From assembly GCA_963829055.1 (NCBI GenBank), contig CAWHHI010000012.1, forward strand, positions 288,001 through 352,000: a DNA stretch of 64,000 bases, written 5' to 3'. Of this stretch, positions 240 to 63,779 are shown in pieces. Position 1 is the first letter of the stretch; every line of letters begins with the position of its first letter. The notes below the pieces were generated by a model, which saw nothing but the letters and a program-made list of their open reading frames with translations, had not been told where the DNA came from and did not search any database. This stretch comes from an uncultured Gemmatimonadaceae bacterium. Its GTDB lineage: Bacteria > Gemmatimonadota > Gemmatimonadetes > Gemmatimonadales > Gemmatimonadaceae. The translations under genes were made by a program, and so were the position numbers.

Positions 240-1724
240 TCACCGGCGAGACCCGATGCCCAACTGCCCCCAGATGCCGTCAACGGTCGCGCGCGTCGTC
301 TCGTCCATCTCGATCACCTTCGGCCAGTTGCGGGTGAACCCTTCCTCGGGCCATTTACGCGTCGCGTCGATCCCCATCTTCGAGCCGTACGTGAATGCTC
401 GGCTCGAGTGATCGAGGACGTCGACAGGGCCCATCGTGAACCGCGTATCGCGCTCGGGGTCGATGTTGTTGAGCGCGACCCACCACGCCTCCTGCGGGTT
501 CCGCACGTTCACTTCCTTGTCGACGATCACGAGCACCTTCGCGAGCGACATCAGTCCTTGCCCCCACATGGCGTTCATCACCTTGTAGGCCTGGCCGGGA
601 TACTGCTTGTCGATCGAGACGAACACGAGATTGTGGAAGATGCCCTCCGCCGGCATGTGATAGTCGACGATCTCCGGGATCGTCAGCTTCAGCAGCGGGA
701 GGAAAATGCGCTCCGTTGCGTGTCCGAGATAGAAGTCCTCCATCGGTGGGCGGCCGACGATCGTAGACGAATACACCGGATTTCGCCGCATGGTGATCGC
801 GGTGATGTGGACTTGTGGGTAGAGATCAGCCTCGGAGTAGAAGCCGGTGTGGTCGCCGAAGGGTCCCTCCGTGACGAGCGGCTCGCGCGGATCGATGTAT
901 CCCTCCAGCACGAACTCCGCTTCCGCGGGCACCTCGAGATCACACGTGACCGCCTTCGCCAGCTGCACTGGCGCGCTGCGGAGAAAGCCGGCGAACAGGA
1001 ACTCGTCGACCGTCGGCGGCAGCGGTGCCGACGCCGAGTAGATGGACGCGGGATCGGCGCCGATCGCAATGCAGACGGGCATCGTTTCTCCACGCTCGGC
1101 CATCTCGCGCCAGTGCGCCGCGCCGACCTTGTGTCGCTGCCAGTGCATCGCGATGGTGCGTGGGCCGAGCACCTGCACGCGATACATGCCGACGTTCCGA
1201 ATGCCGCGCTTCGGATCGCGGGAGATCACCATGGGCAGCGTGATGTACGGCCCTCCATCCTCCGGCCAGCATGTCATGACCGGGATCTTGCGCAGATCCA
1301 CCTGATTGCCCTGCCAGATCACTTCCTGGCACGGCGGCGATCCCCCTTTCATTCGGGGAGGAAAGCGAGCCACCTCGAGCAGCCGGGGCACGAGCGACAG
1401 CTTGGCCACGAGACCATTCGGCACCTTGAGGTCCATGAGCTGCGTGATCCGCGCGCCGATGGCATCGAGATCGGTCACGCCGAGTGCGAGCGACATGCGC
1501 CGCATCGACCCGAACAGGTTGATGGCCACCGGGAAAGCCGAACGTGTCCCGTCATCGAGCACCACGTGTTCGAACAGCAGCGCCGGGCCGCCGCCCGGCA
1601 TTTTCATTGCGCGGTCGGAAATCTCGCACATCTCGAGGCGGGCGGCGACTGGATGCCTAACGCGTACGAGCTCGCCGATCCCTTCGATGGCGGCGATGAA
1701 GTCGGAGAGCGAATCGAGGCTCAT
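240..1724 (-). CDS. ubiD: UbiD-family (prFMN-dependent) decarboxylase, menaquinone-biosynthesis type
   Basis: EGPFGDHTGFY, GRPPMED, N-V-G-M-Y-R and GSKMGIDATRK motifs; start placed at MSLDSLSDF. Confidence 0.92.
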   Translation of the reverse strand: MSLDSLSDFIAAIEGIGELVRVRHPVAARLEMCEISDRAMKMPGGGPALLFEHVVLDDGTRSAFPVAINLFGSMRRMSLALGVTDLDAIGARITQLMDLKVPNGLVAKLSLVPRLLEVARFPPRMKGGSPPCQEVIWQGNQVDLRKIPVMTCWPEDGGPYITLPMVISRDPKRGIRNVGMYRVQVLGPRTIAMHWQRHKVGAAHWREMAERGETMPVCIAIGADPASIYSASAPLPPTVDEFLFAGFLRSAPVQLAKAVTCDLEVPAEAEFVLEGYIDPREPLVTEGPFGDHTGFYSEADLYPQVHITAITMRRNPVYSSTIVGRPPMEDFYLGHATERIFLPLLKLTIPEIVDYHMPAEGIFHNLVFVSIDKQYPGQAYKVMNAMWGQGLMSLAKVLVIVDKEVNVRNPQEAWWVALNNIDPERDTRFTMGPVDVLDHSSRAFTYGSKMGIDATRKWPEEGFTRNWPKVIEMDETTRATVDGIWGQLGIGSRR

Positions 1725-1752
1725 GTGGTCCGGGGACAGCGGTGAGCAGTCG

Positions 1753-2523
1753 CTACGATTTCGCATTGCGAGATAATGGTTTGTCGCCGGAGTGAATCGC
1801 CGCCACGCCGAGCGTCAACGATTCCCAGCGCACGTCGACGAAGCCGGCGTCGCGCATGGCCCCCGCAAGCGCTTCCTGCACCGGAAACCTGGCCACGGAT
1901 TCGGGAAGGTAGCGATACGCGGTGCGATGCCCGCTCACCACGCGGCCCACAGCCGGGAGCACGGCGTGGAAATACGCGTGGTACGCGCCCCGAACGATGG
2001 TCGAGCGCGGCGTCGAGAACTCGAGAATGACGAAGCGGCCGCCCGGCTCGAGAACCCGGTACACCTCTGACAGCGCGTCCGTCAGCGTGGCGACGTTGCG
2101 GATGCCGAACGCGACGATCGCGCCAGCGACGCTGTCACCGGCCAGCGGCAATTCCACGGCGTCAGCCGTAACGGGCGCCACGAGAACGCGAGGGGCCTTC
2201 GCCAGACCGGCGCGGAGCATGGGCTCGGCGAAGTCGGTTCCGAGCACCAGGCCTCGAAAGCCGCGGGTTCGTGACAGCTCCGCGGCGACATCCAGCGTGC
2301 CGGCGCAGAGGTCGACGAACACGCCGCCTGGCCGCCGAGTAGGATCGAGGATGGCAATCGCCCGACGCCGCCAGCGCCGGTCGATATTGAAGCTGAGCAG
2401 ATGGTTCAGCAGATCGTAGCGCGGCGCAATCTCCGAGAAGATGCGACGCACGTACGCGCGCTTCTCGGCACCACCGGCCGCAGCGGCGCGTGCTTCGGTC
2501 GTCTCGAGATCTATTGGTGGCAT
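1753..2523 (-). CDS. ubiE: Ubiquinone/menaquinone C-methyltransferase (UbiE/MenG)
   Basis: IAPRYDLLNHLLSF, DLCAGT, AFGIRNV, RVLEPGG, AYRYLPES motifs. Confidence 0.92.
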   Translation of the reverse strand: MPPIDLETTEARAAAAGGAEKRAYVRRIFSEIAPRYDLLNHLLSFNIDRRWRRRAIAILDPTRRPGGVFVDLCAGTLDVAAELSRTRGFRGLVLGTDFAEPMLRAGLAKAPRVLVAPVTADAVELPLAGDSVAGAIVAFGIRNVATLTDALSEVYRVLEPGGRFVILEFSTPRSTIVRGAYHAYFHAVLPAVGRVVSGHRTAYRYLPESVARFPVQEALAGAMRDAGFVDVRWESLTLGVAAIHSGDKPLSRNAKS

Positions 2524-2676
2524 TCGCTCGAAAGGTGGACGGCCACGCAAGGCCAATCAAGCGCCGTTGTCACGCAGTCGTCACCCCGCACGCTGGATTG
2601 GCGGACCAAGCATAAGTAGCTTCCTCGAATCGCCGGCGACGCTTCGACCTCTCGGGCTGCCGCCGTCGTCCCCTGC

Positions 2677-3285
2677 ATGGCGCCATCACTCGACTTAGCG
2701 ACTCTCCCGGATGCCGACGTCGTCACGCTCGCCCAGCAAGGGCGGGAGGCGGCGTTCCGGGAGCTTCTCCGTCGATACGAGCGTCCGGTTTTCTCCCTGA
2801 TTTTCCGTATGGTTCGTGACCGCGAGATCTCCGAGGATCTCGCGCAGGACACCTTCATCAAGGTGTTGAACCATATCGACCGGTACCGGCCGGAGTTCAA
2901 GCTCTCGAGCTGGCTGTTCAAGATCGCCAACAACGTCGCCATCGATTACCTGCGGAAGCGGCAGCTGGATACGGTCAGCATCGACGGGTCGCCGCACGCG
3001 TCCACCGCCTCCGAGGTCGAGGCGACGTCGTTCGACCTCGCCGCGCGCCAGGAGTCGGCGCTGGACGAGATGGAAGCGCGCGAGCTCGGGACCGCGATCG
3101 AGAGAGCCATCGCTCGGCTCCGGCCTGAGTACCGTTCGTGCATCATGCTCCGCCACGTGGAAGGCCGTTCGTACGAAGAGATTGCCGCGACGCTCGATCT
3201 GCCACTTGGCACCGTGAAGACCTACATCCATCGCGCACGCCACGAACTGCGAGAGGCGCTCGAGCACGTAAAGGGATCCGGGTAG
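2677..3285 (+). CDS. ECF sigma-70 factor, SigW-like
   Basis: Region 2 DLAQDTFIK...SSWLFKIANN; region 4 SYEEIAATLDLPLGTVKTYIHRAR. Confidence 0.93.
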   Translation: MAPSLDLATLPDADVVTLAQQGREAAFRELLRRYERPVFSLIFRMVRDREISEDLAQDTFIKVLNHIDRYRPEFKLSSWLFKIANNVAIDYLRKRQLDTVSIDGSPHASTASEVEATSFDLAARQESALDEMEARELGTAIERAIARLRPEYRSCIMLRHVEGRSYEEIAATLDLPLGTVKTYIHRARHELREALEHVKGSG

Positions 3286-3936: not shown

Positions 3937-5157
3937 ATGCGTGCAGCGATTCTGGCGCTGATCCTCGCGGTCCCTCGGGTGCCGCTGATGGCTCAGCAGG
4001 CCAAGGCCATCCCGGCTCCGCCAGCGAGCCCGACACCCGCGTCTGCGCCAGCGCAGTCTGCCACCGCCGCCACGTCAGCGCCGCGAGTCGTCGAGGCGCC
4101 TGGACCCCAGGCGCAGCCTCTCTCGGCAGCGGCTATCGATTCACTGCGTGAGTTGGTGAACAAGGCCCGCAGGGATCCGGACGTCGGGGCGTTGCCCGGG
4201 AACGATGACGTTGCGATGGGAGGCCGAACCATTGCCGCGAACACCCAAGCTGCCGGCCCCATCGCCGTCGCTGGTGGGCCGCTGCACGTGTTCGGCACCA
4301 TCAACGGCGATGCGATGGCGATCGGCAGCGACGTGATCATTCACCCCGGTGGCCGCATCACGGGCAACGCCGTGTCCGCGTTAGGCAAGGTGACGCTGCT
4401 GGCGGGCGGAACCGTCGACGGCGAGATGCGCCAGCTGGCGGGCCCGTTGGGCAGGGTGTCCACGGCGACCGCGGTCGCCGCGAGTCCGATGACCGCGACA
4501 CGGAACGCACTGGCGCTGTCGTCGAGCTGGTTGGTCATCCTCGTGCTCATCGGCATTGGCGTCCTCGTGTTCGCCGGCAACTATCTCGAAGGTGTCGTCG
4601 AGTCCCTCGAGGGCCGGTTCGGGCGATCGTTCTGGGCGGGCATCGCCGCACAGCTCGCGCTCGCGCCCGCGCTCGCGCTACTCGTCGTTGCGCTTGCCGT
4701 CACGATACTCGGCGTTCTCCTCATTCCGTTCGCGATCGTCGCGTTCATTCTCGCGGTCGCGGGCCTCGTCACGCTCGGGTTCCTGGCCGTGGCCTGTATC
4801 ACGGGCGAGTCGATCTCGCCAGGTGCGAGCAAGAAGTACCACGCGCGCGGCGCAGCGTTACGCGGATTGGTGGTCGGCGTGACGCTGTACATGGGCCTCT
4901 GGGTTCTGGCGTCCGCATTCGCGTGGGCGCCGATGATCGAGACTGTGCTCCGCGGAGTCGCCGTGGCGATCACATGGGTCGCCGCAACCGCCGGTCTCGG
5001 CGCCGCGGTGCTCTCGCGCGGTGGCACCCGGCGTTCGCTCTCGGTGCCCGAGGTACTCGCGCCAGTAAACGACGTGCCTTGGCAGACGCCAACTCCGGTC
5101 ACAGGCGTCGTCGCGGCGCGCCGGCCAACGCCATCGTCGACGGCCCGCGAGCGATGA
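3937..5157 (+). CDS. Membrane protein with N-terminal bactofilin-like beta-helix repeats
   Basis: Signal peptide, G-x-I/V-x-G-D/N repeats (GTINGDA, GRITGNA, GTVDGEM), several C-terminal TM segments. Confidence 0.7.
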   Translation: MRAAILALILAVPRVPLMAQQAKAIPAPPASPTPASAPAQSATAATSAPRVVEAPGPQAQPLSAAAIDSLRELVNKARRDPDVGALPGNDDVAMGGRTIAANTQAAGPIAVAGGPLHVFGTINGDAMAIGSDVIIHPGGRITGNAVSALGKVTLLAGGTVDGEMRQLAGPLGRVSTATAVAASPMTATRNALALSSSWLVILVLIGIGVLVFAGNYLEGVVESLEGRFGRSFWAGIAAQLALAPALALLVVALAVTILGVLLIPFAIVAFILAVAGLVTLGFLAVACITGESISPGASKKYHARGAALRGLVVGVTLYMGLWVLASAFAWAPMIETVLRGVAVAITWVAATAGLGAAVLSRGGTRRSLSVPEVLAPVNDVPWQTPTPVTGVVAARRPTPSSTARER

Positions 5158-6072: not shown

Positions 6073-7029
6073 ATGGTGGTGATGGGGTACAAGGTCCAGC
6101 CTCTCGTGAAAAGGGCGCTCACGGAGATCATGGATGACAACCTGCTCGGGCTCTCGGCGCAGACAGCGTACTACTTCTTTTTCTCGCTGTTCCCGATGCT
6201 CCTGTTCGTCGCTCCGCTGCTGAGCCTCGTCGGGAACAAGCAGGAAACGTTCGGCCTCCTCGCCGGACAACTCCAACAAGTAGTGCCGAGCGAGGGCTGG
6301 TCGCTCATCGGTGGCGTGATCACCGACGTCGTGTACGCGAAGAATGCCCCTGGCCTCATGTCCGTGGGCGCGCTACTCGCGATCTGGGCTGGCTCCAACG
6401 TTTTCAGCGCGTTGATCGACGCGTTGAACGCTGCGTACGACGTCAAGGACACGCGCCCGTGGTGGAAGAAGAAGCTGATCGCGATGGCAAGTGTGCTCGT
6501 CACCGGCCTCATCCTGCTCGTGGCGACCGTACTGATTCTCGGCGGTGATACTCTGGCGGACTTCGTCGCCGACCGACTCGCGTTCGGGGCGACGGCGCGC
6601 GCTGCGTGGACGTACCTGCAGATGCCGATCGCGTTCGCGATGCTCGTGGCGATCGCGGCACTCTCGTATTACTTCCTGCCGAACCTCCGCCAGAGCAAGC
6701 GGCAGGTACTCGTTGGTGCCGTCTTCACGACCATGGCCTGGGCGGTCGTAACGTTCGCGTTCCGTGCCTACGTGACGAATTTCGCGAACTACAACGCCAC
6801 CTACGGCGCCATCGGTGGGGTGATCGTTCTCCTCACGTGGATGTACTTCTCGATGCTGGTGTTTCTGATCGGCGGCGAGATCAACGCCGAGCTGCATCAA
6901 GGCACGGGGGCGGTGGCGTCTCGACCGGGGTTGATGTACGGCGGCCGTATCGAAACCGGGACAGCGGCGGGCGTATCGTCCGTGGAACGCGTGGAGCGCG
7001 TCGAGCCGTTAGGCGCGCGGCGGACGTAG
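6073..7029 (+). CDS. YihY/virulence factor BrkB family membrane protein
   Basis: SAQTAYYFFFSLFP, ALNAAYDV, YNATYGAIGGVIVLLTWMY, GGEINA motifs; GGAG RBS before ATG 6073. Confidence 0.92.
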   Translation: MVVMGYKVQPLVKRALTEIMDDNLLGLSAQTAYYFFFSLFPMLLFVAPLLSLVGNKQETFGLLAGQLQQVVPSEGWSLIGGVITDVVYAKNAPGLMSVGALLAIWAGSNVFSALIDALNAAYDVKDTRPWWKKKLIAMASVLVTGLILLVATVLILGGDTLADFVADRLAFGATARAAWTYLQMPIAFAMLVAIAALSYYFLPNLRQSKRQVLVGAVFTTMAWAVVTFAFRAYVTNFANYNATYGAIGGVIVLLTWMYFSMLVFLIGGEINAELHQGTGAVASRPGLMYGGRIETGTAAGVSSVERVERVEPLGARRT

Positions 7030-7764
7030 CACGACAGGAGTGCCGCGCGCGATGACCAGAGCGCGCGCGGCACTCCCGTCACGCTGCGCCACCTCGACGA
7101 ACCCGCTCGACCCCACGAGCGCCACCAGCTGTCCGACGGGCGTGTCCGCGTATGTCCTCATGATCGGCAGCACGCGACCACTGATCTCGACGCTTCCGCC
7201 TCGCGGCGCGATGAGATTACTGATCGCGTTTCCGAAGCGATCGATCGCGATCACTTCGCCGATGACCGACCCGTTGTCGCCTCGACGTGCTTCGGGTGTT
7301 CGACGAATCACCGGATCGAGGCACGCGGCACCGAGCGTGTCGATCGACATGCCGCCGACGAGACTCGCGGCCGCAGGCGCAAAGACATCACGCCCGTGAA
7401 ACGTGGGAGCGGCGAGTGCCGGCACGCGTAACGACACGGCGCGGGATCCACCCGCGAGCAGTGACGGGCTGAGAACACCGTTGTCGGGACCGACGAGGAA
7501 ACGGCCTTCGCTGCTCACCGCGAGCGCAGCACGTGCCGACCCGACACCGGGGTCGACGACCACGACGTGCACCGTTCCCGCTGGAAATCGGCGCCAGTAC
7601 CGCGCGACCGCGAGGCGCGCCGTCTCGATGTCCTGGGGCGGAATGTCGTGCGAGAGGTCGACCACTACGGCATCCGGTGCCGTCGATGCGAGTACGCCCT
7701 TGATCTCGGCGACATAGCCGTCGGCGGTGCCGAAGTCGGTGAGAAGCGTGATGGTCGGCCGCAT
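7009..7764 (-). CDS. SAM hydroxide adenosyltransferase (DUF62, chlorinase/fluorinase superfamily)
   Basis: ITLLTDFG, VVDPGVGS, GPDNG, TFHGRDVFAP, IDRFGN motifs. Confidence 0.9.
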   Translation of the reverse strand: MRPTITLLTDFGTADGYVAEIKGVLASTAPDAVVVDLSHDIPPQDIETARLAVARYWRRFPAGTVHVVVVDPGVGSARAALAVSSEGRFLVGPDNGVLSPSLLAGGSRAVSLRVPALAAPTFHGRDVFAPAAASLVGGMSIDTLGAACLDPVIRRTPEARRGDNGSVIGEVIAIDRFGNAISNLIAPRGGSVEISGRVLPIMRTYADTPVGQLVALVGSSGFVEVAQRDGSAARALVIARGTPVVLRPPRA

Positions 7765-7767
7765 GCG

Positions 7768-9210
7768 CTACACGGATTTGCGCTTCCAGCCGCCGGCGCG
7801 CCAGAGGGCAATCATCGCCACGCCGCGCGCCGCCGCCGTCAGCGAGATGGTCCACCAGATACCGTCGACGCCCCAGCGTTCCGCCGCCCACCATGCAAGG
7901 GGAATGCGCAACACCGTGAGCGTCGTCGATGTCAGCATGGGCGGAATGGTGTGGCCTGCCCCGCCAAGCGCGCCCTCCAGCACTATCTCGGCGCATACCG
8001 TGAGATCAGCGATCGCGCCGATGCGCAGGTAGCGGGCGGCGACGTCGACGACTGCGGGGTCCGACGTGAAGAGCCCAGCCAGCTGTGCCGGAATGAGCAG
8101 CGCCGCCACGGCCGCGACACAGGCCGGGCCAGTCGCGTACCCCAGGGTGACCCATCCTGCTCGCTCGGCGCGATCTGGCCGCCCCGCGCCCAGGTTCTGG
8201 CCGACGATCGCGGCGGCAGCCGCGCCGAAGCCGACACCAATCGTGTACAACCAGCTCTCTACGCGGTGTCCCAGACCTAACGCGGCAAGCGCTGGGGTTC
8301 CGAACTGCGTGGTGGTGCGCGTCAGGGCGACGTAAATGAGCGAGAACATGATGCCTGTCAGCGCCGTGGGCAGCCCGACGCGCGCGATCGATGCGATCGT
8401 CGGCCAGGTCACTCGTCGTACGCGCATCAACCCGCGCTGAGCGAGGATCACAACGCCGGCAATGAAGGCGCCACTGCGCGTCAGGAGCAACGCGATCGCG
8501 GCGCCGGCGATCCCGAGCTTCGGCGCGCCCCACAGGCCGAGGATCAACACCGGGTCGAGCGTCAGCGTGCACAGCGTGGACACGAGCAGCAACACGAACG
8601 GCGTGCGCGTGTCGCCCGACGCCCGGAACGCGGCGTCGACGGCGAAGTAGCCGTAGATGAGCGGCGCGCCCATCAAGTAGATCCTGAGGTAGTCGCGCCC
8701 GAGCGCCGTAACCTCTGGCGGCGTCTGCATGACGGCGAACAGACGTTCCACGTTCAGGGCACCCACGATGCCGATCACCGCGCCTAACGCGACCGAGAAA
8801 ACCACGGCCTCGCCCACGATGCGCGCCGCTTCCGCTGGCCGACGCTCGCCGTGCCGGCGCGCCGCGACCGCCGTCAGTCCCACACTCACCATCTCGGCGA
8901 GTGCTATGACCATCCAGATCCAGAACACTGCCGTGGACACGGCCGCGAGACCGCTCGCACCGATTCGAGTGCCAACCCAGAAGGCGTCGACAGAGGCGAA
9001 CACCGTCATCAGCACGTTCGACGCGACCGCCGGCAAGGCGAGACGGCGGATCACGACGGCCAGCGGATCTCGCACGACGCTCGACGCAGCCGCGGGACCG
9101 TTCAGCGAGACGGTCGCGGCGCCATCGTGAGCCTCGAACGGCAACGCGGCCGACGGAGTCATCTCCGGCGGCCGCGCGACTTCATCCTGTCGAAGCTCGC
9201 GCCTCGTCAC
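7768..9210 (-). CDS. MATE family efflux transporter
   Basis: About 12 TM segments; RASGDTRTP, LGIAGAAIA, VGQNLGAG motifs. Confidence 0.92.
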   Translation of the reverse strand: MTRRELRQDEVARPPEMTPSAALPFEAHDGAATVSLNGPAAASSVVRDPLAVVIRRLALPAVASNVLMTVFASVDAFWVGTRIGASGLAAVSTAVFWIWMVIALAEMVSVGLTAVAARRHGERRPAEAARIVGEAVVFSVALGAVIGIVGALNVERLFAVMQTPPEVTALGRDYLRIYLMGAPLIYGYFAVDAAFRASGDTRTPFVLLLVSTLCTLTLDPVLILGLWGAPKLGIAGAAIALLLTRSGAFIAGVVILAQRGLMRVRRVTWPTIASIARVGLPTALTGIMFSLIYVALTRTTTQFGTPALAALGLGHRVESWLYTIGVGFGAAAAAIVGQNLGAGRPDRAERAGWVTLGYATGPACVAAVAALLIPAQLAGLFTSDPAVVDVAARYLRIGAIADLTVCAEIVLEGALGGAGHTIPPMLTSTTLTVLRIPLAWWAAERWGVDGIWWTISLTAAARGVAMIALWRAGGWKRKSV

Positions 9211-10343
9211 CGCTCGGCAGTCGCTACCAGCGCCGCTGCAACACGCTCGGCCAGTGCCCGGAGCGCTCGAGAGGCCGAGGATTCCGGCTCGGCAACGATG
9301 ATCGGCGTACCGCGATCTCCACCTTCGTGCACGCGTGGATCCAGCGGAATCTCGCCGAGCAGCGGAAGCTCCAACTCATCCGCCAGCCGCTTCCCGCCGC
9401 CAGTGCCGAAGATCGCAGTCGGCTTACCACAGTGAGGACACTCGAACCAGCTCATGTTCTCGACGATCCCCAGCACGGGAACATTCACGCGCTGGAACAT
9501 CTTCGCGCCGCGGAGCGCGTCGCCCGTCGAGACGTCCTGCGGCGTGGTCACGATGATCGCGCCATGGACGTGCGTCGCCTGAACGAGCGAGAGTTGTGCG
9601 TCACCGGTGCCTGGTGGCATGTCGACCAGGAAGTAGTCGAGCTGTCCCCATGCCACATCACGCAGGAACTGCGTGACGATCTTCATGACGATGGGACCGC
9701 GCCAGATGGCCGGCTGATCCCGCTCGATGAGAAAACCCAGGCTGATCAGCTTCACCCCGTGCGCTTCCAGGGGGATGATCTTTTCGTCGACGACGGGTGG
9801 CGGTGCGTTCACGCCCATCATACGGGGCACGTTAGGCCCGTAGACATCCGCGTCCATGAGGCCGACGCGCGCTCCCGTAGCCGCGAGGGCGACCGCGAGA
9901 TTGGTCGCCACAGTCGACTTGCCGACGCCGCCCTTGCCGCTCGACACCGCGATGATGCGTCCGAGCGCCGGGTACGAAACAGGCGTGGGCGCCGACGGGC
10001 GCGGCGCAGCAGCAGGCGCCGCGTTCATGACGGGAAGCGCACGCGCCGACGGCGCCGCAGGCGGCGGCGCGTGCTTCGCGGCGGGGCGGGCGTTCGATTC
10101 GGACGCGTCCTTCACGTCGACGAGCACGTCGACGACGCCGTCGACACTGGCAATCGCCTCGCGAACGTCTCGCACGAGCGTGGCCGGATCGCTCGGCGAC
10201 AGGAGCATCGTTAGGCGTACCTTGCCGGTCGTGGTCGTCGCGATGTCGCGGACCATCTCGGCAACCAGCACATTGAGCCCGGTACGCGGGTTGATCACCG
10301 TCGCGAGCGCGTTGGCGATCCCTTCCTGAAGGGTCTGACTCAT
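9207..10343 (-). CDS. apbC: Mrp/NBP35 (ApbC) Fe-S cluster carrier ATPase
   Basis: SGKGGVGKST, DADVYGP, DMPPGTGD, ENMS..CPHC. Confidence 0.93.
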   Translation of the reverse strand: MSQTLQEGIANALATVINPRTGLNVLVAEMVRDIATTTTGKVRLTMLLSPSDPATLVRDVREAIASVDGVVDVLVDVKDASESNARPAAKHAPPPAAPSARALPVMNAAPAAAPRPSAPTPVSYPALGRIIAVSSGKGGVGKSTVATNLAVALAATGARVGLMDADVYGPNVPRMMGVNAPPPVVDEKIIPLEAHGVKLISLGFLIERDQPAIWRGPIVMKIVTQFLRDVAWGQLDYFLVDMPPGTGDAQLSLVQATHVHGAIIVTTPQDVSTGDALRGAKMFQRVNVPVLGIVENMSWFECPHCGKPTAIFGTGGGKRLADELELPLLGEIPLDPRVHEGGDRGTPIIVAEPESSASRALRALAERVAAALVATAER

Positions 10344-13544: not shown

Positions 13545-15623
<2,079 letters not shown>

Positions 15624-46997: not shown

Positions 46998-47029
46998 CGG
47001 CGGCTCCATCGACGCCCTCATCCGTGGCG

Positions 47030-49559: not shown

Positions 49560-49565
49560 CGCGGC

Positions 49566-49830
49566 GTCATCCCGAGCGCCAGCGCGAGGAGCGCACGACG
49601 AGCCTCGGGAGGTCATCGTGCCGGCTGGCGTTCTGCGACTCGACGGCGGAACGCAGAGCGCCTGACGCGCAGACGACGCAGAAAGATGAACAATTGCATG
49701 CCGTTTCTGCGAGGTCTGAGCGCTCAGAGCCGTCTGCGTTGCGTAGTGCCAGCCGCCTGGATCGAAATCGAGGCCGGCACTGCCGGCCCGATAACGGTCG
49801 AGAAGGTCCCTCGCTGGCGCTCGGGATGAC
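49566..49830. repeat. 265-bp MITE/REP-like element with terminal inverted repeats
   Basis: GTCATCCCGAGCGCCAGCG ... CGCTGGCGCTCGGGATGAC between convergent genes. Confidence 0.75.
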
Positions 49831-53653: not shown

Positions 53654-53815
53654 GTCATTACGAGGCGTTGTCATTCCGAGCGGAGGTCGTCGTCATTCCG
53701 AGCGAGCCGAGCGAGTCGAGGAATCGCGACCGTCCCGATAGAGGGGCCCCTCTACCCGGTATGATCGCGATTCCTCGACTGCGTCGCCCTCGGAACGCAT
53801 CCGCTCGGAGATGAC
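53654..53815. repeat. GTCATTCCGAGCG-family palindromic element with triplicated left end
   Basis: GTCATT(A/C)CGAG starts at 53654, 53670, 53692; internal GTCGAGGAATCGCGA/TCGCGATTCCTCGAC; ends CGCTCGGAGATGAC. Confidence 0.75.
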
Positions 53816-54801
53816 TACATCGCCCGTACCTCGGAGTCGTCACCCAGCGTCAACTCGCCATTGACGCCCTCGATCACCACCGAGTCGCCAATGAGCGAGT
53901 TCACCAGCTTCGAGCCCGTGATCTTCGTGCTCGAACCCACGAGCGTGTCCTTGAGCTCCGACTTCTCGATGACCGACCCGCGCCCGATCGACACGTTAGG
54001 ACCTATTCGCGCGCCTTTCAGCACCACGTCGTCCTCGATGTAGACGGGATCGATGATGGTCGAATCGCCGTCGGTCTTCGGCCGCCGCGCGTGGCCTTTC
54101 TCGAGCATCACGCGATTCGTCTCGAGCAGCGTGTCGATCTTCCCCGCGTCGTACCAGCCCTCGACGTCGATCACGCGGATCTTCGCGCCGTGGTCGATCA
54201 TGTACTGGAACGCGTCGGTGAGATAGTACTCGCCCTTGTTCTTGGGCTGCGTGAGCACCCAGTCGATGCCCTCGTAGAGCAGCTTCCAGTTCCGGATATA
54301 ATAGAGGCCGATGTTCGCGCGCTTGGAGATCGGCGTGCTCGGCTTCTCGACGATCTTCGTCATGTTGCCGTCGGCATCGGTGACGACGACGCCGAAGCGC
54401 TGATAGTCCTCGACTTCCTTGACCCAGATGATGCCGTCGGCGTCGATCGTCTTCGTGACCGACAGGTCCGCGTCGAAGATCGTGTCGACGAAGATGATCA
54501 GCACTGGCTGGTCGACGTGCTCACGCGCCAGCGCGATCGCGCCCGCCGTTCCGTCCTGCACCTTCTGCTCGATGAACACGCTCGGGATGTCGGCGAAGTT
54601 CGTCCGGGCATACTCCTCGACTTTCTCCTTGAGGTGCCCGGTGATGTAGACGATCTCCTCGACGTTGCCGAGTCGCCGCAGGTCGTCGAGGACGTACTCC
54701 ATCACCGGCTTGCCGGCGATCTTGAGCATCGGTTTCGGCGTGATGTGCGTGTGCGGGCGCAGGCGCGTGCCTTTGCCGGCGAGCGGAATGATCACCTTCA
54801 T
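53815..54801 (-). CDS. Sugar-phosphate nucleotidyltransferase with C-terminal beta-helix
   Basis: AGKGTRLRPHT..PKP, VEKP, GEYYLTDA, WYDAG. Confidence 0.92.
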   Translation of the reverse strand: MKVIIPLAGKGTRLRPHTHITPKPMLKIAGKPVMEYVLDDLRRLGNVEEIVYITGHLKEKVEEYARTNFADIPSVFIEQKVQDGTAGAIALAREHVDQPVLIIFVDTIFDADLSVTKTIDADGIIWVKEVEDYQRFGVVVTDADGNMTKIVEKPSTPISKRANIGLYYIRNWKLLYEGIDWVLTQPKNKGEYYLTDAFQYMIDHGAKIRVIDVEGWYDAGKIDTLLETNRVMLEKGHARRPKTDGDSTIIDPVYIEDDVVLKGARIGPNVSIGRGSVIEKSELKDTLVGSSTKITGSKLVNSLIGDSVVIEGVNGELTLGDDSEVRAM

Positions 54802-55349: not shown

Positions 55350-57135
55350 ATGATCCTCGCGCCGCGCTTCCTGCCACGCCTGGCAGCGACCGTCGGGCTG
55401 TTCACTCGCTACGGGCTCCGTGACTTCGCCCGGCAACAAGGGCTCATCGAGCTCTCGCCCGACGAAGCGGCTGGCCCGCGACGCCACCGAAGGCGACGGC
55501 GCCTCCAATCGCGCGGTCGCATTCCGCAAGCGACTCGTGGAGCTCGGACCCGCGTACGTGAAGCTCGGCCAGGTCCTCTCGACGCGCCCCGATCTCGTAC
55601 CCGAGGCGTACATCGAGCAGTTGCAGCAGCTGCAGGACGACGTCGCACCCGTACCGTTCGCCGAGATCGAGCAGGTCATCCACGACCAGATCGGCGGCCG
55701 GATCAGCAAGTTGTTCGCGACGTTCGACCACACGCCGCTCGCGTCGGCGAGCCTTGGGCAGGCGCATGCGGCGACGCTCCGCGACGGCCGAGCGGTCGTC
55801 GTGAAGGTGCAGCGGCCCGATATCCGGCCGATCCTCGCCGACGACATCGAGTTCTTCCGCGAGCTGGCCAAGTTCCTGTCCGCGCACCTTCGCGCTGGCG
55901 CCCGAGTCGACATGGTCGGCGTCGTACAGCAGCTCGAGCGCGCACTCGCCGACGAGTTGGACTACCGTGTGGAAGCACGCAACATGGCGCTGTTCCGCCG
56001 ATCCCTCGCCGAGTTTCCGCGACTGCTCGTGCCGAAAGTCGTCGAAGCGTACACGCGCGAGCGCGTCCTAACGAGTGAGCGCGTGCGCGGCGTGAAGGTC
56101 AACGAGATTCCACCGCTCGCTCGGCTCGACACGGATCTCTCGCGCCTCGCTGACGAGTTAGGCAAGGCGTACCTCAAGCAGATCGCGATCGACGGACATT
56201 TCCACGCCGACCCGCATCCGGGAAACATCTTCCTCGTCCTCTCCGCCGATGAGAACCCGCGCACGCCGGCGGACATCGTCGCCAACGAGCGACGGGTCGA
56301 GCAGCGCAACACCGAGTCGCCGCTCGCGAAGCTGGAGCAGGTCGCGCAGCGTGAGGCAGCGCCCGCGGCGCCTCCGGACGAGCCACGTCTCGCGATCATC
56401 GACTTCGGCATGACCGCTCGGCTCTCGCCGCCGATGCGCGATCGCATCGTTCGCCTGTTGTTCGCCATGGCCGAGAATCGTGGCGACGACGCCGGTGAGA
56501 CGCTGATCGAGATCGGCGAGCCGATCGCCGACTTCGACCGCACGGCGTTCATTCGCGAGATCGCGTCGCTCATCGCGCACAATCACGAGCGCGCCGTCGG
56601 CGACATGCACGCGGGCCGAGTGCTCTACGACGCGATCAGCATCGCGTATCAGCGCGGCCTCAGGCTTCCCGCCGAGCTCACACTGCTGGCCAAGACGCTG
56701 TTCAGCCTCGACGCGATCACGCGCGCCCTCGATCCGGCCTACAACCCCACCGAAGCCATCCGGTCGTACACGGCCGAGATCATCAACGACCGGGCGCGGC
56801 GTGACTTCTCCCCGGCGCGGCTCGCCCGCGCGGTCGCCCAGTCCACTGAGCTGATCAACGCGCTGCCGCATCGCCTCGATCTCATCACGCAGCACCTGGC
56901 GGCGAACGACATGAGTCTCAAGGTCGACGCGCCCGAGATGTCGACCGTGCTCAAGGGAATGCAGAAGATCGCCAACCGCATCTTCACCGGACTGGTACTC
57001 ACCGGGCTCCTGATCGCGAGTGGGCTCTTGATCAATCAGCGGCCGCGACTCGGCACCACCGGCTTTCTGCTTGCCGGGGGCATCGGGCTCTACATGGTGA
57101 TCTCGATACTCGTCTCCGATCGTCGGCGTGATTAG
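55350..57135 (+). CDS. ABC1/UbiB (AarF) atypical kinase, frameshifted near 55470
   Basis: LGPAYVKLGQ, ASASLGQ, VKVQRP, HADPHPGN, DFGM. Confidence 0.9.
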
Positions 57136-57320: not shown

Positions 57321-57589
57321 GGACGGGCGCGAACGTCGCATGCCTGTTCCGCGACCCGTTTCAGCTGTGACGTCCGCACTCAGTGGTTCCGACCTGAGCC
57401 GCGAACCGACACCCCGCCGCCGTCCAGCGTCGCCGCTACGTAGCGGCGGCGCAACCTCGCGAAGTGGCCTGCCCCGTATTGTGACGTTGGGGCTTGAGGG
57501 CAGACCGCCCCATCAAGCCTATTTCGTCTACGCCGCCCTTCATGTTCGGCGTTCCCGCGCCGCGCCTTCGCCCCGACCGCTTCCATCCG

Positions 57590-59999
57590 ATGCTCGATCA
57601 TCTGCGTTCCGATCTTCGCTCCGCCTTCCGGCGGCTCCGCTCGTCACCAGGGTACGCGACGGTCTCCGTCATCACGTTAGGCCTCGGGATCGGGGCCAGC
57701 ACGGCCATCTTCAGCGCCGTGGACGGCGTGCTGCTCAAGTCGCTGCCCTATCGCGACCCGTCGAGCCTCGTGCAGATCTCCGAGACGAATGTGCCGCGGA
57801 ATTTTCCGTCGTTCCCCGTGACACCGGCGAATCTCGCCGATTGGCGCACGCAGGCTCGCTCGTTCTCAGGACTCGCCGCATCGCGTCCGCGACGCGCGAT
57901 TCTGACAACGGCCAACGGCGAGCCGGAACGCGTGCCCGCAGCTGGCGTCAGCACGAACTACTTCCAGCTCCTCGGCGTCGGCACGCACATCGGGCGAACA
58001 TTCGTGGCGTCGGACAGCCTGCCGTCGGCCGAGCGGCCGGTGATCCTCGCGTACAGCTTCTGGCTGCGCCGCTTCGGCGCGGACTCGACACTCATCGGAA
58101 AGCCCATCACGCTCGACGGATCACCGTTCACGGTCATTGGCGTGCTCTCGCCGAGCGTGCGTACGTCGACGCAGTTGTGGACGCCCCTCACGCTACCGCC
58201 GCAGATCATCGCGGATCGGAACGCGCACATGCTCTCGGTTATCGCCCGCGTTGCACCCGGGCGATCGCTCGACGCGGTGCGCCGAGAAATGAGCGCCATC
58301 AGCACGCGGCTCGCTACCGACTACCCCGGCTCGAACAAGGATTGGACGGTCACGATCGTGCCGCTGCTCGACCAGATCGTCGGCAAGCTGCGCCCAGCGT
58401 TGATGGCGTTGATGGCCGCCGTCGTGTTCGTCCTGCTCATTGCCTGCGCGAACGTCGCGAACCTGACGCTCGCCCGCGGCTACGCACGCGCGCGAGAGAT
58501 CGCGGTCCGTGGCGCGCTCGGCGCTGGACGCCGCCGCATTGCCGCACAGATGCTGACAGAGAACGCCGTTATCGCGTTGTTAGGCGGCGCCGTCGGCGTT
58601 GGAATCGCCGCGCTCGGAGTGAAGCTGCTTCGCACGCTCGCACCGACGAATCTGCCGAGGGTCGACGAGATCGCGGTCGACGGACGCGCGCTCGCGTTCG
58701 GCCTGCTCGCCTCGCTCGGCACGGCGGTCGTCTTCGGACTGCTTCCCGCGCTGCAGGGCTCTCGGATGGACCTGTCCAACGCGCTCCGGGAGGAAGGCCG
58801 AGGCGCGTCGATGAGCCGGCGCGCGCGCCTCGTGCAGCGCACGCTGGTCGTCACGCAGATCGCGTTCGCGATGGTACTGCTCTCCGGCGCGACGCTGCTG
58901 TTCCGAAGCTTCGTCTCGCTCGCGAATCGACCGCTCGGATTCGACACCGCGCAGATCGCGACCGCGCAGCTCACGCTTCCGCGACGCGCGTACCCGCGTG
59001 AAGTCGATCAGGTGCGGTACGCGACGACGCTGCTCGAGCGGCTTCAGTCCGAGCGCGGCGTCGAGGCTGCGACGATCTCCGGTGGGATGCCAGGCGGAAA
59101 TTTCACGAATCTGTTCCTGCTCTCGGTCGTCGGGCGACCTGAGCCGGACCCGTCCAACCTCCCGGTCGCGCTCTTCATTCCCGCAACGCCTAACTACTTC
59201 AAGACGCTCGGCATGTCACTCAAGGCCGGCCGCGTTGTTCAGCGATCGGGACGACGCCAGCGCCCCTCCGGTCGCCATCGTCGACGAGCTGTTCGTGCGC
59301 CGCTACCTCGGCGCCGGTGACCCACTCACGCGTCGCGTTATGCTCGCCATCGATGATTCGATTCCCCGTCAGATCATCGGTGTGGTCGCGACAGTGAAGC
59401 AGAACGGCGTCGATGGCGATGAGCAGCCGGCCACCTACCTGCCCTTCGCCCAGGCGCCATCCGCCGACATGAGCGTGCTGGTGCGAGGTAGTGGTGGTGT
59501 CGCGCCACTCGGGGCGATCAAGAGCGTGACGCGCGCGGCAGACCCGGATGTGCCTGTGTATGACATCCAGTCGCTGTCGGATCGCGTGGCCATCGCCGTC
59601 GGGCCGACGCGCTTCTACACCGTGCTCGCGAGCGTCTTCGCGATCATCGCGGTGACGCTCGGTGCCATCGGCGTCTATGGTGTGCTCGCCGACACCGTCT
59701 CTCGCCGACGTCGCGAGCTCGGGATCCGCGTCGCGCTCGGGGCGGCGCCCAGGACGCTCGTTGGCGGCGTGCTCATGGACGGCGCTCGCCTCGCGGGTGT
59801 TGGCGTCGGCGTCGGACTGCTGGCGAGTGTGTGGACCGGCGGCGCGTTGCGGGCGCTACTCGTGGACGTCGGCGCGCGCGATCCGATCGCGCTTGGAGGG
59901 TCTGCCGTCATCTTCGCAGTGGTCGCGCTCGTCGCGTCGTTAGGCCCGGCGGCCCGGGCGGTTCGTGCCGATCCCATCGAGGCGCTCCGGGCGGACTGA
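57590..59999 (+). CDS. ABC transporter permease (ADOP/MacB-FtsX duplicated type), frameshifted near 59235
   Basis: TLGLGIGASTAIFS, LLIACANVANL, REIAVRGALGA, RELGIRVALGA, ADPIEALRAD. Confidence 0.9.
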
Positions 60000-60104
60000 G
60001 CCCGTCCAGAGCGGCGTCCGTCAACAGCGGCGGCCTCTTCCGCTGCGTGCAGCGCGGTTTCTTAACGCGTGTCGACCTCTGCCGTGAACCCAGTCCCGCT
60101 CAGC

Positions 60105-60980
60105 ATGCGTCTACGCACCGTTGCGACCATCGCGCTCGCTCTTCCGTCGTCCGCTCTCGCTCAGATCCGCGCCAGCGAGATCGGCACGATGTCGCAGATC
60201 ATTGACGGCACCAAGCTGACGATGGAATACTCTCGCCCACGCACGCGCGGCCGGGAGCCCCTCTTCGGCGGACGCGTGGTGCGATGGAACGAGGTGTGGA
60301 CGCCAGGCGCGAACTGGGCAACGACCCTCGAGACGAACAAACACTTCACGCTCAACGGCCGGCCGGTGCCGAAGGGCAAGTATTCCGTCTGGCTCATCGT
60401 GAAGCAGAACGCCGACTGGACCATGATTCTCGATCCGCGCGTGCGTCGATATCACGAGGACCCACCCGACTCGACCGGCGACCAGATCCGATTCCCGGTT
60501 CGCCCGACGACGGGCCCGTTCGCTGAGGTGCTGACGTGGTCGGTGCCGGCCGTGACGGCGACTGGCGGGACACTGGCGATGAACTGGGGCACCACCGCGA
60601 TCGCAATGGACGTGGCGGTCGAGCCGTCGTTCCGGACGACGATGGACGCAGCAGACGCGGCGCCGTTCCTCGGGCGCTACGACTACACGTCTCTGATTGC
60701 GCCGGACAGCGGGAAGCGGAGCGTACTGATCGTGACGTACGAGGACAGCACACTCAAGGGCCGCTGGGAGCCTAACGACCCGTACTTCCGGAAGTTCGCG
60801 CTGATCCGCATTGCGCCGAACTGGTTCGCGCCGGGCGTGTATGACGAGAACGGCCGGATCTACGAGGTCTACAAGCCCGAGATGACGTTCGAATTCACCG
60901 TCACGGCAGGCAAGGCTGTTTCAGTCGAAGAACGTGGTGAGGACGATAAGGTGGAAGCTACCGGCAAGCGGAAGCCGTAA
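60105..60980 (+). CDS. DUF2911 domain secreted protein
   Basis: YSRPRTRGR..FG, VWTPGAN, GKYSVW motifs; signal peptide. Confidence 0.85.
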   Translation: MRLRTVATIALALPSSALAQIRASEIGTMSQIIDGTKLTMEYSRPRTRGREPLFGGRVVRWNEVWTPGANWATTLETNKHFTLNGRPVPKGKYSVWLIVKQNADWTMILDPRVRRYHEDPPDSTGDQIRFPVRPTTGPFAEVLTWSVPAVTATGGTLAMNWGTTAIAMDVAVEPSFRTTMDAADAAPFLGRYDYTSLIAPDSGKRSVLIVTYEDSTLKGRWEPNDPYFRKFALIRIAPNWFAPGVYDENGRIYEVYKPEMTFEFTVTAGKAVSVEERGEDDKVEATGKRKP

Positions 60981-61031: not shown

Positions 61032-61580
61032 CTAGCGGCCGCTCCTCGCCAGCATGCGCGACCGCAGAATGCCGAGCCGGCGGCGCACGGAGCCGTCCAT
61101 CACGCGATCGCCAACCCGGACGATGATACCGCCCAGAATGTTCGGGTTGATGCGCACCTGCGGGACGACCGTCTTGCCTAACGTGTGACTCAGCTGGCGG
61201 GCGATCTCGGCCCGCTGCTCGTCATCGACGTCCCTGGCGAGCGTCACCTGCGCGTGGATCCGCCCCTCCACCTCATCCACCAAATCGCGATACTCGTTCG
61301 CGATGTCGGGGATGAGCATCTGGCGCCGATTCATCACCAGGCGCTGCAGGAACCGCAGGAACAGGCGCGGCGCACGATCCTCGTACGCCTTGGACAGCAC
61401 GGCGTTCTTCTCGTCGGCCGAGACCTGCGGGGCCTCGAGAAACCGGCGAAGGCGATCGTCGCGCTCCATCGCATTCGCGACGTCGTCGATCAGCCGACCC
61501 CAGGCCGGCAGGTCGTCCGCCTTCCGCGCCAGCATGAGCAGCGCCTCGGCATAGTTGCGCGCGATCGTTGCGTCGCGCAT
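61032..61580 (-). CDS. atpH: ATP synthase F1 subunit delta
   Basis: ARNYAEAL, ILGGIIVRVGDRVMDGS. Confidence 0.95.
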   Translation of the reverse strand: MRDATIARNYAEALLMLARKADDLPAWGRLIDDVANAMERDDRLRRFLEAPQVSADEKNAVLSKAYEDRAPRLFLRFLQRLVMNRRQMLIPDIANEYRDLVDEVEGRIHAQVTLARDVDDEQRAEIARQLSHTLGKTVVPQVRINPNILGGIIVRVGDRVMDGSVRRRLGILRSRMLARSGR

Positions 61581-62537: not shown

Positions 62538-62694
62538 GAAATTCTCCGAACCGTTGAAATTCGAACTGCATTCAGCCCCGCGCCGTTAGGCGCTGCTCGT
62601 CCTCGAGGCCCGGGCCTCAACGAGCTTCTCCAGCCGCTCGGCTGGATACCACCCTCGCGCTGGAGCGCCTGGCTCACGAGGGTCGAACAGTGCG

Positions 62695-62766
62695 GTCATT
62701 CCGAGCGAGCGGAGCCGGGTGCCCACCGCCGGGTGGGCGCTCGAGGCATCGTTCGCTCGGAATGAC
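62695..62766. repeat. GTCATTCCGAGCG-family palindromic element in the atpB-atpE spacer
   Basis: GTCATTCCGAGCGA ... TCGCTCGGAATGAC. Confidence 0.8.
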
Positions 62767-62770
62767 AAAC

Positions 62771-63779
62771 TCAGTGGCCGCCCTCTCGAATAAGCCCGAT
62801 GAACACACTCGACAGGAGCGTGAAGATGTAGGCCTGCAGTAACGCCACGAAGAGCTCGAGCATCATGATGAGGACCGCCATGACGAACGGCGCGGTGGCG
62901 ACAAGCCAGCTGTTGAAGACGAAGATGAGTCCGATGAGCGCGAGCACGACGATGTGTCCAGCCGTCATATTCGCGAACAATCGGATCGCGAGCGCGAAGG
63001 GCTTCGTGAACTTGCTCAGTATTTCCACTGGCGTCATGATCACGAACATCGGAATGCGCATCAGCCAGCGGCAGTTCCTTGTTCCAGTAGAACACCGTAT
63101 TCAGATAGCCGACGCCTTGCGCCTTCATGCCCGCGATCTCGACGACGATGAACGTGATGATCGCGAGCGTCGCCGTAACAGAGATATTCCCGGTCGCGGT
63201 GGACAGGTACGGGATGAGTCCGAGCAGGTTCGCCGTGAGAATGAAGAAGAAGAGCGTCAGGCCGAATGGCACGAACGCGTTGCCATGATGGCCAACGTTA
63301 GGCAGGACAACCTCGTTCCGCAGATATAACACCATCGACTCGATTCCAGCAGCGAACCCTTTGGGGTGGCCTGTCTGCTGCGTGTGGCGCACGTGCGCTT
63401 GCGCTGAGCCCACGAGGACCAGCGTCGCGATGGTGGCCGCGAGCAGCAGCATCACGACGTGCTTGGTCGGCGAGAAGTTGACCTCGAACCGGCCAATCTG
63501 CACCGGATCCCACAGCGGTCCGCATTCGCCGTTCGCCGTGTGACGACCGAGGCAGACCTCCTTCGACCAATGCGAGTTCACCCACGGGAACTCCAGCTCG
63601 TAGGAATCCGTGATGTGCGGCGTGATGATGTCGACGGCTTCGGCAGTCGGCTCCTGCGCCGTCAACCGTGAGGTCGCGAGCACACTACCACCGAGCGCCA
63701 TGATCGCAGCGACCAGCAGGAAGCGGAGTCCGGAAGCGCGCCGAAGCGACGAGGCGAGGAGTCGGTCGAACGATCTCAT
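62771..63779 (-). CDS. atpB: ATP synthase F0 subunit a, frameshifted near 63062
   Basis: [36 protein letters not shown] across two frames. Confidence 0.93.

Follow-up and report, generated by a model that had tools for sequence, protein, structure and literature searches.

A short word iterated across the window

The window analyzed here is the whole 64,000-nucleotide stretch of an uncultured Gemmatimonadaceae bacterium (assembly GCA_963829055.1, contig CAWHHI010000012.1, positions 288,001 to 352,000), and its subject is a non-palindromic octamer, GCCTAACG (reverse complement CGTTAGGC), which contains the hexamer CCTAAC/GTTAGG. Thirty-one octamers (14 on the plus strand and 17 on the minus strand) and 45 hexamers (19 and 26, respectively) are present, exactly as counted and placed by the initial annotation; the GC content, which it had put at about 68%, was measured as 66.0%. 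Dinucleotide shuffles of the window held a mean of 0.84 octamers and a maximum of 5, and 0 of 100 shuffles reached 31. By our gene calls, 20 of the 31 octamers lie inside genes, 2 overlap stop codons, and 9 fall outside called genes; several of these 9 lie in annotated open reading frames (ORFs) missed by our gene model. The word was found to be a genome-wide signal, and it is read below, tentatively, as a DNA-uptake-type sequence. All sites in the window are listed here (positions, strand, form of the word, and context).

1655-1662, +, consensus, antisense in a UbiD-family decarboxylase, Val-Arg frame
4379-4386, −, consensus, Leu-Gly frame (TTA-GGC), ORF 3937-5157
7007-7014, −, consensus, GCC-TAA stop of the S-adenosylmethionine (SAM) hydrolase-like ORF 7009-7764, also within the yihY ORF
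8275-8282, +, variant with A at position 1
8782-8789, +, consensus, Leu-Gly frame, MATE transporter
9830-9837, −, consensus, Pro-Asn frame, Mrp/ApbC
10209-10216, −, consensus, Leu-Thr frame, Mrp/ApbC
13556-13563, −, variant with T at position 8
14375-14382, −, variant with T at position 1, guaB region
19723-19730, +, variant with A at position 1
20025-20032, −, variant with C at position 1
22449-22456, +, consensus, Leu-Thr frame, gpmI
26160-26167, −, consensus, inside the dacB-like ORF 25976-27649
27737-27744, −, consensus, Leu-Gly frame, moeA/glp
28454-28461, −, consensus, Leu-Gly frame, moeA/glp
28880-28887, +, consensus, Leu-Thr frame, moeA/glp
30339-30346, +, consensus, uncertain ORF 29798-30412
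31886-31893, −, variant with A at position 8
33523-33530, −, variant with T at position 1
34420-34427, +, consensus, Leu-Gly frame, etfA
35669-35676, +, consensus, outside called genes
36593-36600, −, consensus, Leu-Thr frame
39438-39445, +, consensus, Leu-Gly frame, ORF 38673-39497
43766-43773, −, consensus, inside the cstA-like ORF 43080-44192
44408-44415, −, consensus, outside called genes, overlapping the end of the mechanical ORF 44410-44988
45344-45351, −, consensus, Val-Arg frame
46011-46018, +, consensus, outside called genes
46761-46768, −, consensus, Leu-Gly frame, ORF 46208-47050
49001-49008, +, variant with A at position 1
49554-49561, +, consensus, GCC-TAA stop of an ArgE/DapE-family ORF
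50025-50032, +, consensus, outside called genes
50506-50513, +, consensus, Leu-Gly frame, flavin monooxygenase
51289-51296, −, consensus, Leu-Thr frame, flavin monooxygenase, also the stop of ORF 51291-52070
52163-52170, −, variant with C at position 1
53994-54001, −, variant with T at position 1
56066-56073, +, variant with T at position 1
56156-56163, −, variant with T at position 8
57675-57682, −, consensus, Leu-Gly frame, called ORF 57542-59320
58578-58585, −, variant with A at position 8
59188-59195, +, variant with T at position 8
59938-59945, −, consensus, inside the ADOP-permease-like ORF 58998-59999
60770-60777, +, consensus, Pro-Asn frame, ORF 60069-60980
61176-61183, +, consensus, Leu-Gly frame, atpH
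62584-62591, −, consensus, at the stop of the atpB-like ORF 62586-63779
63296-63303, −, consensus, inside the atpB-like ORF

Enrichment of the word throughout the host genome

The host genome (G000; 7.78 Mb in 20 contigs, 85.9% complete) contains 5,004 octamers (2,457 and 2,547 by strand), or about one site per 1.5 kb with both strands counted. The word is not confined to one contig: all 20 carry it, at 478 to 802 copies per Mb. It is the top 8-mer of the genome under Markov models of orders 1 to 3, and the numbers expected were 102 at order 2, 258 at order 3, and 2,916 at order 4. Under orders 5 and 6, which the initial annotation had named as a test, 4,755 and 5,066 octamers were expected and there was no enrichment, but such a test is circular, since CCTAAC accounts for 7,103 of the 8,933 CTAA tetramers in the genome. 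An order-4 model with the motif masked gave an expectation of 66.5, so that the observed number is a 75-fold excess and the idea of a genome-wide DNA signal is supported.

The excess also withstands a codon-aware null. Genes were called with a simple model of our own on an assembly that contains frameshifts (74% coding), and they hold 3,230 octamers, 1,491 sense and 1,739 antisense (54% antisense); five synonymous shuffles of the same genes left only 62 to 83 sense and 23 to 33 antisense copies, about 100 in total. Genic octamers occupy only four stop-free frames, Leu-Gly (1,300), Pro-Asn (895), Leu-Thr (596), and Val-Arg (439), and the motif fills 58% of the compatible Pro-Asn contexts and 22% of the compatible Leu-Gly contexts. 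TTA codons are concentrated before glycine codons, a point that the initial annotation had proposed to test for GGC, with GGC or GGT coming next in 1,829 of 2,746 cases, and 280 of 931 TAA stops are GCC-TAA. Among the 24 sequencing runs listed, 14 contain half or more of the words of the window; these come from rhizosphere, soil, and one freshwater-sediment metagenome. In a comparison with named loci, the best three of the 80 matches listed for the window's phosphoglycerate mutase were Gemmatimonadaceae, Gemmatimonas, and Gemmatimonadetes records (68, 67, and 63%), which places the host in Gemmatimonadota and probably in Gemmatimonadaceae. The iterated word is real and genome-wide; the initial annotation had recognized the signal and had missed its match to the integron attC core, its short-range repulsion, and its lineage dialects, which are described below.

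Origin, conservation, and turnover of sites

In codon alignments with relatives, a gap stood opposite a host site in 3 of 280 and in 0 of 233 comparisons; relatives often encode the same residues with ordinary codons where the host has the word. Among congeners (76 to 80% nucleotide identity), 68 of 132 site comparisons were shared, 58 of them exactly, compared with 14 to 19% for control 8-mers; these 132 comparisons count the same sites in up to five genomes and are not independent. Rare codons were kept among congeners inside the motif in 26 of 46 cases for TTA, 14 of 21 for AGG, and 13 of 19 for CTA, compared with 7 of 33, 7 of 102, and 11 of 94, respectively, outside it. Positions common to the host and other motif-rich genera were few (4 of 38 for G014, 6 of 32 for G240, and 2 of 45 for G304). 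Nearly gap-free alignments, sharing among congeners, and little sharing between genera together show that sites originate by point changes, are retained, and turn over on the timescale of genera. Compensatory turnover between congeners was not detected (7 of 64, with 8.0 expected). Nor was a halo of divergence detected near shared sites; divergence at fourfold-degenerate positions was 0.51 to 0.56 within 600 bp and 0.50 beyond, values close to saturation that give the comparison low power.

Anatomy, polarity, and spacing of the word

Several one-step variants are enriched in the host genome, namely those in which position 1 is A (29-fold) or C (15-fold), position 3 is A (17-fold), or position 8 is A (23-fold). 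The dinucleotide GA almost never directly follows a site (6 of 4,609 sites scored), and apart from weak preferences at −1, +1, and +2, no extended motif or AT-rich flank was found in the host. Strand bias was assessed relative to a dif-like site (C16:560797-560825), which coincides with a switch in GC skew and has a Xer gene about 19 kb away. The leading-strand share on this contig was 368 of 665 (55%), close to the antisense share in genes, and the earlier rejection of Chi and KOPS (FtsK-orienting polar sequences) on grounds of polarity therefore holds. A role in dif/Xer recombination found no support, the dif site being without the word.

Sites repel one another at short range. Gaps of less than 100 bp numbered 71 in the host genome, against 316 expected, and close pairs were depleted in all four orientations. 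For pairs, the four nearest bins, which extend to 400 bp, had observed-to-expected ratios of 0.34, 0.55, 0.79, and 0.93; the pair correlation started at 0.28 and reached about 1 by roughly 350 bp, without later peaks. Five control hexamers had no short-range hole, and neither 10.5-bp phasing nor periodic peaks up to 3 kb were found. Enriched variants were likewise repelled from consensus sites, and non-enriched variants mostly were not. The hole recurs in 400 kb of a plasmid of strain KBS708, in 240 kb of G014 and as much of G240, and in a 17-kb phage contig; fitted ranges of repulsion were about 280 to 510 bp, and four curve shapes fitted indistinguishably. Occupancy of compatible contexts followed the same course, at 54 of 176 (0.31) for Pro-Asn and 64 of 865 for Leu-Gly within 100 bp of another site and at 416 of 589 (0.71) and 540 of 1,371, respectively, at 500 to 1,000 bp, with a second drop past 1 kb in both. 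The repulsion over about 300 to 400 bp thus survives correction for coding opportunity. In a small test among congeners, no repulsion was seen, with 6 of 51 lineage-specific sites near shared ones and 6.1 expected.

On a larger scale, 302 gaps exceeded 4 kb (about 364 expected), and site density was somewhat lower on the terminus contig (77 per 100 kb, versus 107 on C20). Site triplets formed six clusters in the host genome, none of which pointed to a reader gene. The word is thin or absent in foreign-looking DNA, near rRNA genes, and in genes with low GC content at third codon positions (0.59 versus about 1.0 per kb). Motif-free stretches of 31 to 48 kb lie near contig ends (C6:6854-55038, C11:7377-44055, and C6:591809-623330); they carry housekeeping-like genes, are apparently foreign, and are likely to be chimeric joins or contamination.

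Distribution in the order, dialects, and phages

All six congeners carry the word, with 2,500 to 5,100 copies. In a survey of the family, counted by hand and with 7 unpublished genomes excluded, about 90 of 294 genomes reached 100 copies per Mb; unpublished genomes underlie none of the conclusions. The trait is nearly all or none within a genus, one genus being split 6 of 9, and many sister genera are without the word. Beyond this family, one genus of a second family has it, as does a third family. None of 134 genomes from outside the order carried it (one unpublished genome was excluded), and 77 loci from other phyla held 8 copies in about 1.2 Mb. Carriers and non-carriers were intermixed in a poorly resolved recA/yraN/recX tree of 51 genomes. 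Plasmid 1 of Gemmatirosa kalamazoonensis KBS708 (1.106 Mb) holds 778 copies, compared with 20 for a control word. In a genome without the octamer (G008), another weakly iterated word, CTATTA/TAATAG, was noted 11 times in 60 kb (0.4 expected).

The tolerated changes differ among lineages. In G000 and G014, positions 1 and 3 can vary; the KBS708 plasmid is strict apart from accepting C at position 4 (54 versus 9); and G240 is variable at positions 2, 4, and 8 and allows GA after the site. The AAC triplet is invariant in all dialects examined. Tolerances that evolve around a fixed core are the pattern that would be expected of a protein reader. A literature search of partial coverage, confined to main texts, found no description of GCCTAACG/CGTTAGGC as an iterated word.

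Three scans of viral sequences yielded a few motif-rich phage contigs, most matches being chance pairs or integron arrays; the first scan gave at least 119 matches, with flanks for 80 of 119, and the motif-rich contigs were chosen after the fact. The 17-kb contig IMGVR_UViG_3300049057_000028, which has portal, terminase, and capsid genes, contains 35 heptamers, 31 octamers, and 43 hexamers in the G000/G014 dialect, or one site per ∼380 bp at even spacing, with a coefficient of variation of 0.67. Of 251 genomes in the order, 3 have relatives of its portal protein; the four short prophage-like loci concerned are without the word. IMGVR_UViG_3300019458_000055 has 39 heptamers in 44 kb, and IMGVR_UViG_3300037483_000275 has 28 heptamers in 57 kb and a weak integrase match; both have homologues in the host genome at 41 to 45%. 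Judging from their Gemmatimonadales-like genes, the motif-rich phages probably infect Gemmatimonadales. Temperate phages of Pasteurellaceae carry the uptake word likewise (excerpt of PMC6776037).

Match to the integron attC core

The core heptamers of attC sites have been described as RYYYAAC/GTTRRRY (excerpt of PMC3053210), and the word is the heptamer found at the attC ends of Gemmatimonadales cassette arrays. An array in G027, a genome without enrichment (C95:1-24000), has at least 21 attC sites of 88 to 103 bp, in two subfamilies and on the same strand (24 regular-expression matches, with 3 set aside as spurious or partial). In this array, GCCTAACG makes up the R'' end in 19 of 21 sites, and GTTAGGC makes up the R' end in 19 of 21. 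The variants tolerated by the word also appear at attC ends of other relatives, which include A1, A3, A8, and T2 forms; the form with A at position 3 falls outside RYYYAAC. The triplet on which the integrase acts is AAC/GTT.

Within the host genome, the copies are not built like attC sites. Only about 3 to 4 attC-like sites were found among about 5,600 heptamers, and the copies are solitary, without paired R''...R' ends that lie 57 to 141 bp apart and form a hairpin, and without an L box. They lie in core genes with no fixed orientation, and both orientations were about equally frequent at gene starts and stops, which is not the pattern of a same-strand array. No cassette array was found at the host intI locus; the IntI protein encoded there (C20:208008-208943) is degenerate, with a long branch and altered motifs in the catalytic region, and a lone N-terminal IntI fragment lies at C4:2850-3239. 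In the order, IntI passed the family cutoff in 24 of 40 and 22 of 40 genomes, carriers and non-carriers alike. It was absent or broken in motif-rich G004, G010, G014, G020, G131, and G401 and intact in many genomes without the word, and neither the IntI tree nor its residues separated carriers from non-carriers. Two near-perfect palindromes of 52 to 55 bp bounded by the motif (C18:97494-97548 and C20:163143-163194) resemble collapsed attC sites.

Coincidence is an unlikely reason for an exact match over 7 to 8 bases with the attC end of the order itself, although the match was noticed after the fact, and we put a causal link between the word and the attC core at a little better than even. Transformation feeds cassettes to chromosomal integrons in Vibrio cholerae (excerpt of PMC12614218), and a receptor that recognizes cassette ends during uptake is plausible on that account. 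Soil Gemmatimonadales might have evolved a reader of DNA whose preference is the integron core, either a cassette-fishing uptake receptor or an integrase-derived strand-nicking factor, and this reader might have rewritten the chromosome, megaplasmids, and phages with thousands of solitary attC cores. We regard this broader proposal as doubtful; if it is true, integron cassettes would be linked to natural transformation and to sequence drive across the genome in one previously undescribed system. The match also bears on the reasons for the form of attC ends and on how cassettes move between cells.

Interpretation as a possible uptake signal

The reading that we favor, with a probability of roughly 45%, is that the word is a third signal of the DNA-uptake type and has spread by molecular drive. 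A sequence-specific protein present in many Gemmatimonadales genera would recognize V-C-M-T-A-A-C-R (consensus GCCTAACG) in double-stranded DNA, whichever way the word is oriented. This protein would most likely be part of the natural-transformation machinery. Fragments that bear the word would be preferentially taken up and recombined, and point mutations that create the word would spread while those that destroy it would be purged. Each site would serve a few hundred bases, so that a second site nearby would gain little and the observed spacing would result. At least half of the genome is probably beyond the reach of any site, and long gaps are tolerated, which suggests that each site matters little; such a small value per site would be more in keeping with drive or weak selection than with an essential role. 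That a protein reads the word is a strong inference, and that uptake is the step acted upon is held with moderate confidence; a derivation of the reader's taste from integron cassette ends is speculative. Uptake was one of three mechanisms offered by the initial annotation, together with methylation-coupled repair and nucleoid-protein binding. It fits every genomic test run but is unproven, and methylation-coupled repair is disfavored.

Sequence-specific uptake with genome-wide signals has been described for two proteobacterial families (excerpts of PMC1939737 and PMC7811141). Molecular drive has been modeled for the DNA uptake sequence (DUS) of Neisseria and the uptake signal sequence (USS) of Pasteurellaceae, in which biased uptake and recombination give such patterns (excerpts of PMC7811141, PMC2817400, PMC1939737, PMC2397512, and PMC6776037). 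Like them, the Gemmatimonadales word is short and non-palindromic, occurs about once per kb on both strands with an even spread, is built by substitution in coding DNA, has dialects, and is present in associated phages of organisms with competence genes. It is thin in recently acquired DNA and rRNA regions, as is USS in foreign-looking DNA and rRNA surroundings (excerpts of PMC7811141 and PMC2817400). It differs from both in its unrelated phylum and sequence, its length of 7 to 8 bp, its lack of AT-rich flanks, terminator pairs, and a cloud of core mismatches, and its identity with the attC core. Compared with other iterated words, it lacks a defining property of HIP1 (highly iterated palindrome 1), of Chi and KOPS, and of attC and seems to work most like an uptake sequence. 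The competence genes that such a reading would call for are present: comEC was found in 39 of 40 genomes, comM in 60 of 60, dprA and a PilQ-like gene in 5 of 5 motif-rich genomes, and pilin genes in 5 of 5.

A number of results weigh against uptake. Competence genes are equally common in genomes without the word, and comM does not separate carriers from non-carriers. The DUS receptor of Neisseriaceae is ComP. No receptor was found here, and pilins and ComEA-like genes failed to separate motif-rich from motif-poor genomes; among the pilin clusters of five genomes, none tracked the carriers, so that the co-distributed competence pilin suggested by the initial annotation was not recovered, the ComP family itself not having been searched for. 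Inverted pairs of the word in terminators are absent from the host genome, unlike those of DUS and USS. In the host, copies with one mismatch at position 2, 4, 6, or 7 do not exceed background, and those with one at position 5 are at most 2-fold enriched; in DUS and USS, mismatched copies are enriched (excerpt of PMC1939737). Conversion tracts in Neisseria are about 0.6 to 1.7 kb (excerpt of PMC2397512), and a range of 300 to 400 bp would imply short recombining fragments. The octamer density of IMGVR_UViG_3300049057_000028 is about 1.4 times that of the densest host surveyed, which is more than passive drive would readily give. Competence in this phylum was not described in the literature consulted, of which coverage was partial.

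Saturation and suppression near existing sites are also predicted by Elhai's ratchet for HIP1 (excerpt of PMC4390886), and the repulsion seen here is independent of orientation. In a methylation-free version of that ratchet, which we consider rather unlikely, a strand-specific nicking protein, possibly related to the integrase or sharing its taste, would nick the strand opposite the word at a mismatch; word-completing mutations would be fixed, and existing sites would direct repair within about 300 bp and so suppress their neighbors. The AAC/GTT triplet common to all dialects and the attC-type cores of the tolerated variants agree with such an enzyme. Elhai's model, however, requires a strand mark (excerpt of PMC4390886), and no methyltransferase was found in the searches described below; MutH was missing in 27 of 27 motif-rich genomes, no one-step neighbor of the motif is drained in the host, the low-power comparison gave no divergence halo near shared sites, and no such nicking enzyme was identified. 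Conservation against codon preference and the saturating spacing might instead reflect selection for sites bound by a protein of chromosome maintenance or self-recognition; the benefit would level off within about 300 bp, and phages would copy the mark. The reader could be a nucleoid organizer, a repair loader, or a defense sensor that spares word-bearing DNA. The phage contig filled to one site per ∼380 bp and the density difference between the terminus contig and C20 speak for selection of this kind. It seems unlikely in view of a long-gap tail that is hardly reduced, foreign-looking stretches of 31 to 48 kb without sites (possibly chimeric), many sister genera entirely without the word, the lack of phasing or periodic peaks, and the four prophage-like portal loci without it.

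The attC match invites an explanation as scars of the integron integrase, in which cassette insertions at attG sites followed by imprecise excisions leave core heptamers behind. Genome-wide insertion and imprecise excision by the integrase are known (excerpt of bioRxiv 10.1101/2022.09.11.507474), IntI is common in the order, and the G027 ends match exactly. This account is very unlikely and already largely refuted: the sites are in frame, indel-free, and conserved, the attG consensus is merely GWT (same excerpt), attC-like sites are rare in the host, and the presence, integrity, and tree of IntI do not track the word. Scars, moreover, would not repel each other. That the word marks phosphorothioate modification or is, like HIP1, the site of an orphan DNA methyltransferase is highly improbable. 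The density resembles that of HIP1, and non-palindromic 6-mers in which an A is modified are typical of bacteriophage exclusion (BREX) and type III enzymes; 5-methylcytosine is poorly seen by the PacBio method. The KBS708 PacBio methylome lists only RGATCY, ATGCAC, and CCAGN7TCA (PMC3974934) despite the 778 plasmid copies, a result taken from the published motif list, to which the deposited data could add unlisted modifications. The co-distributed methyltransferase suggested by the initial annotation was not found. No N6 or N4 methyltransferase family was found in the host genome (85.9% complete), which yielded neither PF01555 nor PF02384 and in which D12 and MT-A70 were checked by motif regular expressions alone; no C5 methyltransferase was found in 4 of 4, and no DndC in 5 of 5, motif-rich genomes searched. 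Neither MutH nor DndC distinguished carriers from non-carriers. Cyanobacterial HIP1, together with the alternative HIPs, is likewise an octamer that is 15- to 300-fold enriched, conserved against codon preference, and patchy across its phylum (excerpt of PMC5861425), and it has recently been linked to transformation (excerpt of PMC13756078), its function still being debated; it is a palindrome, whereas the Gemmatimonadales word is non-palindromic, without a cognate methyltransferase, and missing from a carrier's published methylome. Chi and KOPS sites are, like the word, non-palindromic, genome-wide, and octamer-sized, and phages carry the word, yet a signal for a helicase-nuclease or translocase is barely conceivable and largely refuted for AddAB and FtsK. 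The word is not polarized relative to replichores or dif, and repulsion also holds between opposite orientations. Strong AddAB-like (PF12705) matches were found in 3 of 24 motif-rich and 13 of 30 motif-poor genomes, a comparison in which kin are not independent and weak matches can escape. In this 60-genome panel, uncorrected for kinship, AddAB-like pairs were also rarer in motif-rich genomes within one genus.

If the uptake reading is true, the word would be a third, independent, and methylation-free uptake signal in an abundant soil phylum and would provide a test of the molecular-drive model; the 300- to 400-bp repulsion would then be a length scale of the process in soil. The on/off distribution among sister genera, the dialects, and a cultured carrier make a direct test feasible. 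The word is also available as a marker for contig binning in this order and may help in phage-host assignment.

Other features of the window and host genome

Palindromic repeats resembling repetitive extragenic palindromic (REP) elements, of the GTCATTCCGAG...CTCGGAATGAC type, lie in the window at 30504, 49566-49830, 53670-53702, and 62695-62766. Their arms have 1,152 matches across the host genome and are almost absent from the stretches of congeners and other genera checked. A connection of these repeats with the octamer found no support: no tight link was seen, and they are nearly missing in other carriers. Isocitrate dehydrogenase, cstA, and ubiB appear to be frameshift-split or cut (window positions 40279-41371, 42096-44192, and 55420-57135), probably through long-read assembly errors. 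Two 16S copies of the host differ at several positions and by small indels, which reflects either sequencing error or true variation. An Rfam search of the window gave a single hit, a cyclic di-GMP-I riboswitch at 18068-18150 on the minus strand (40.3 bits, with a gathering score of 35), located at the start of ORF 17093-18148.

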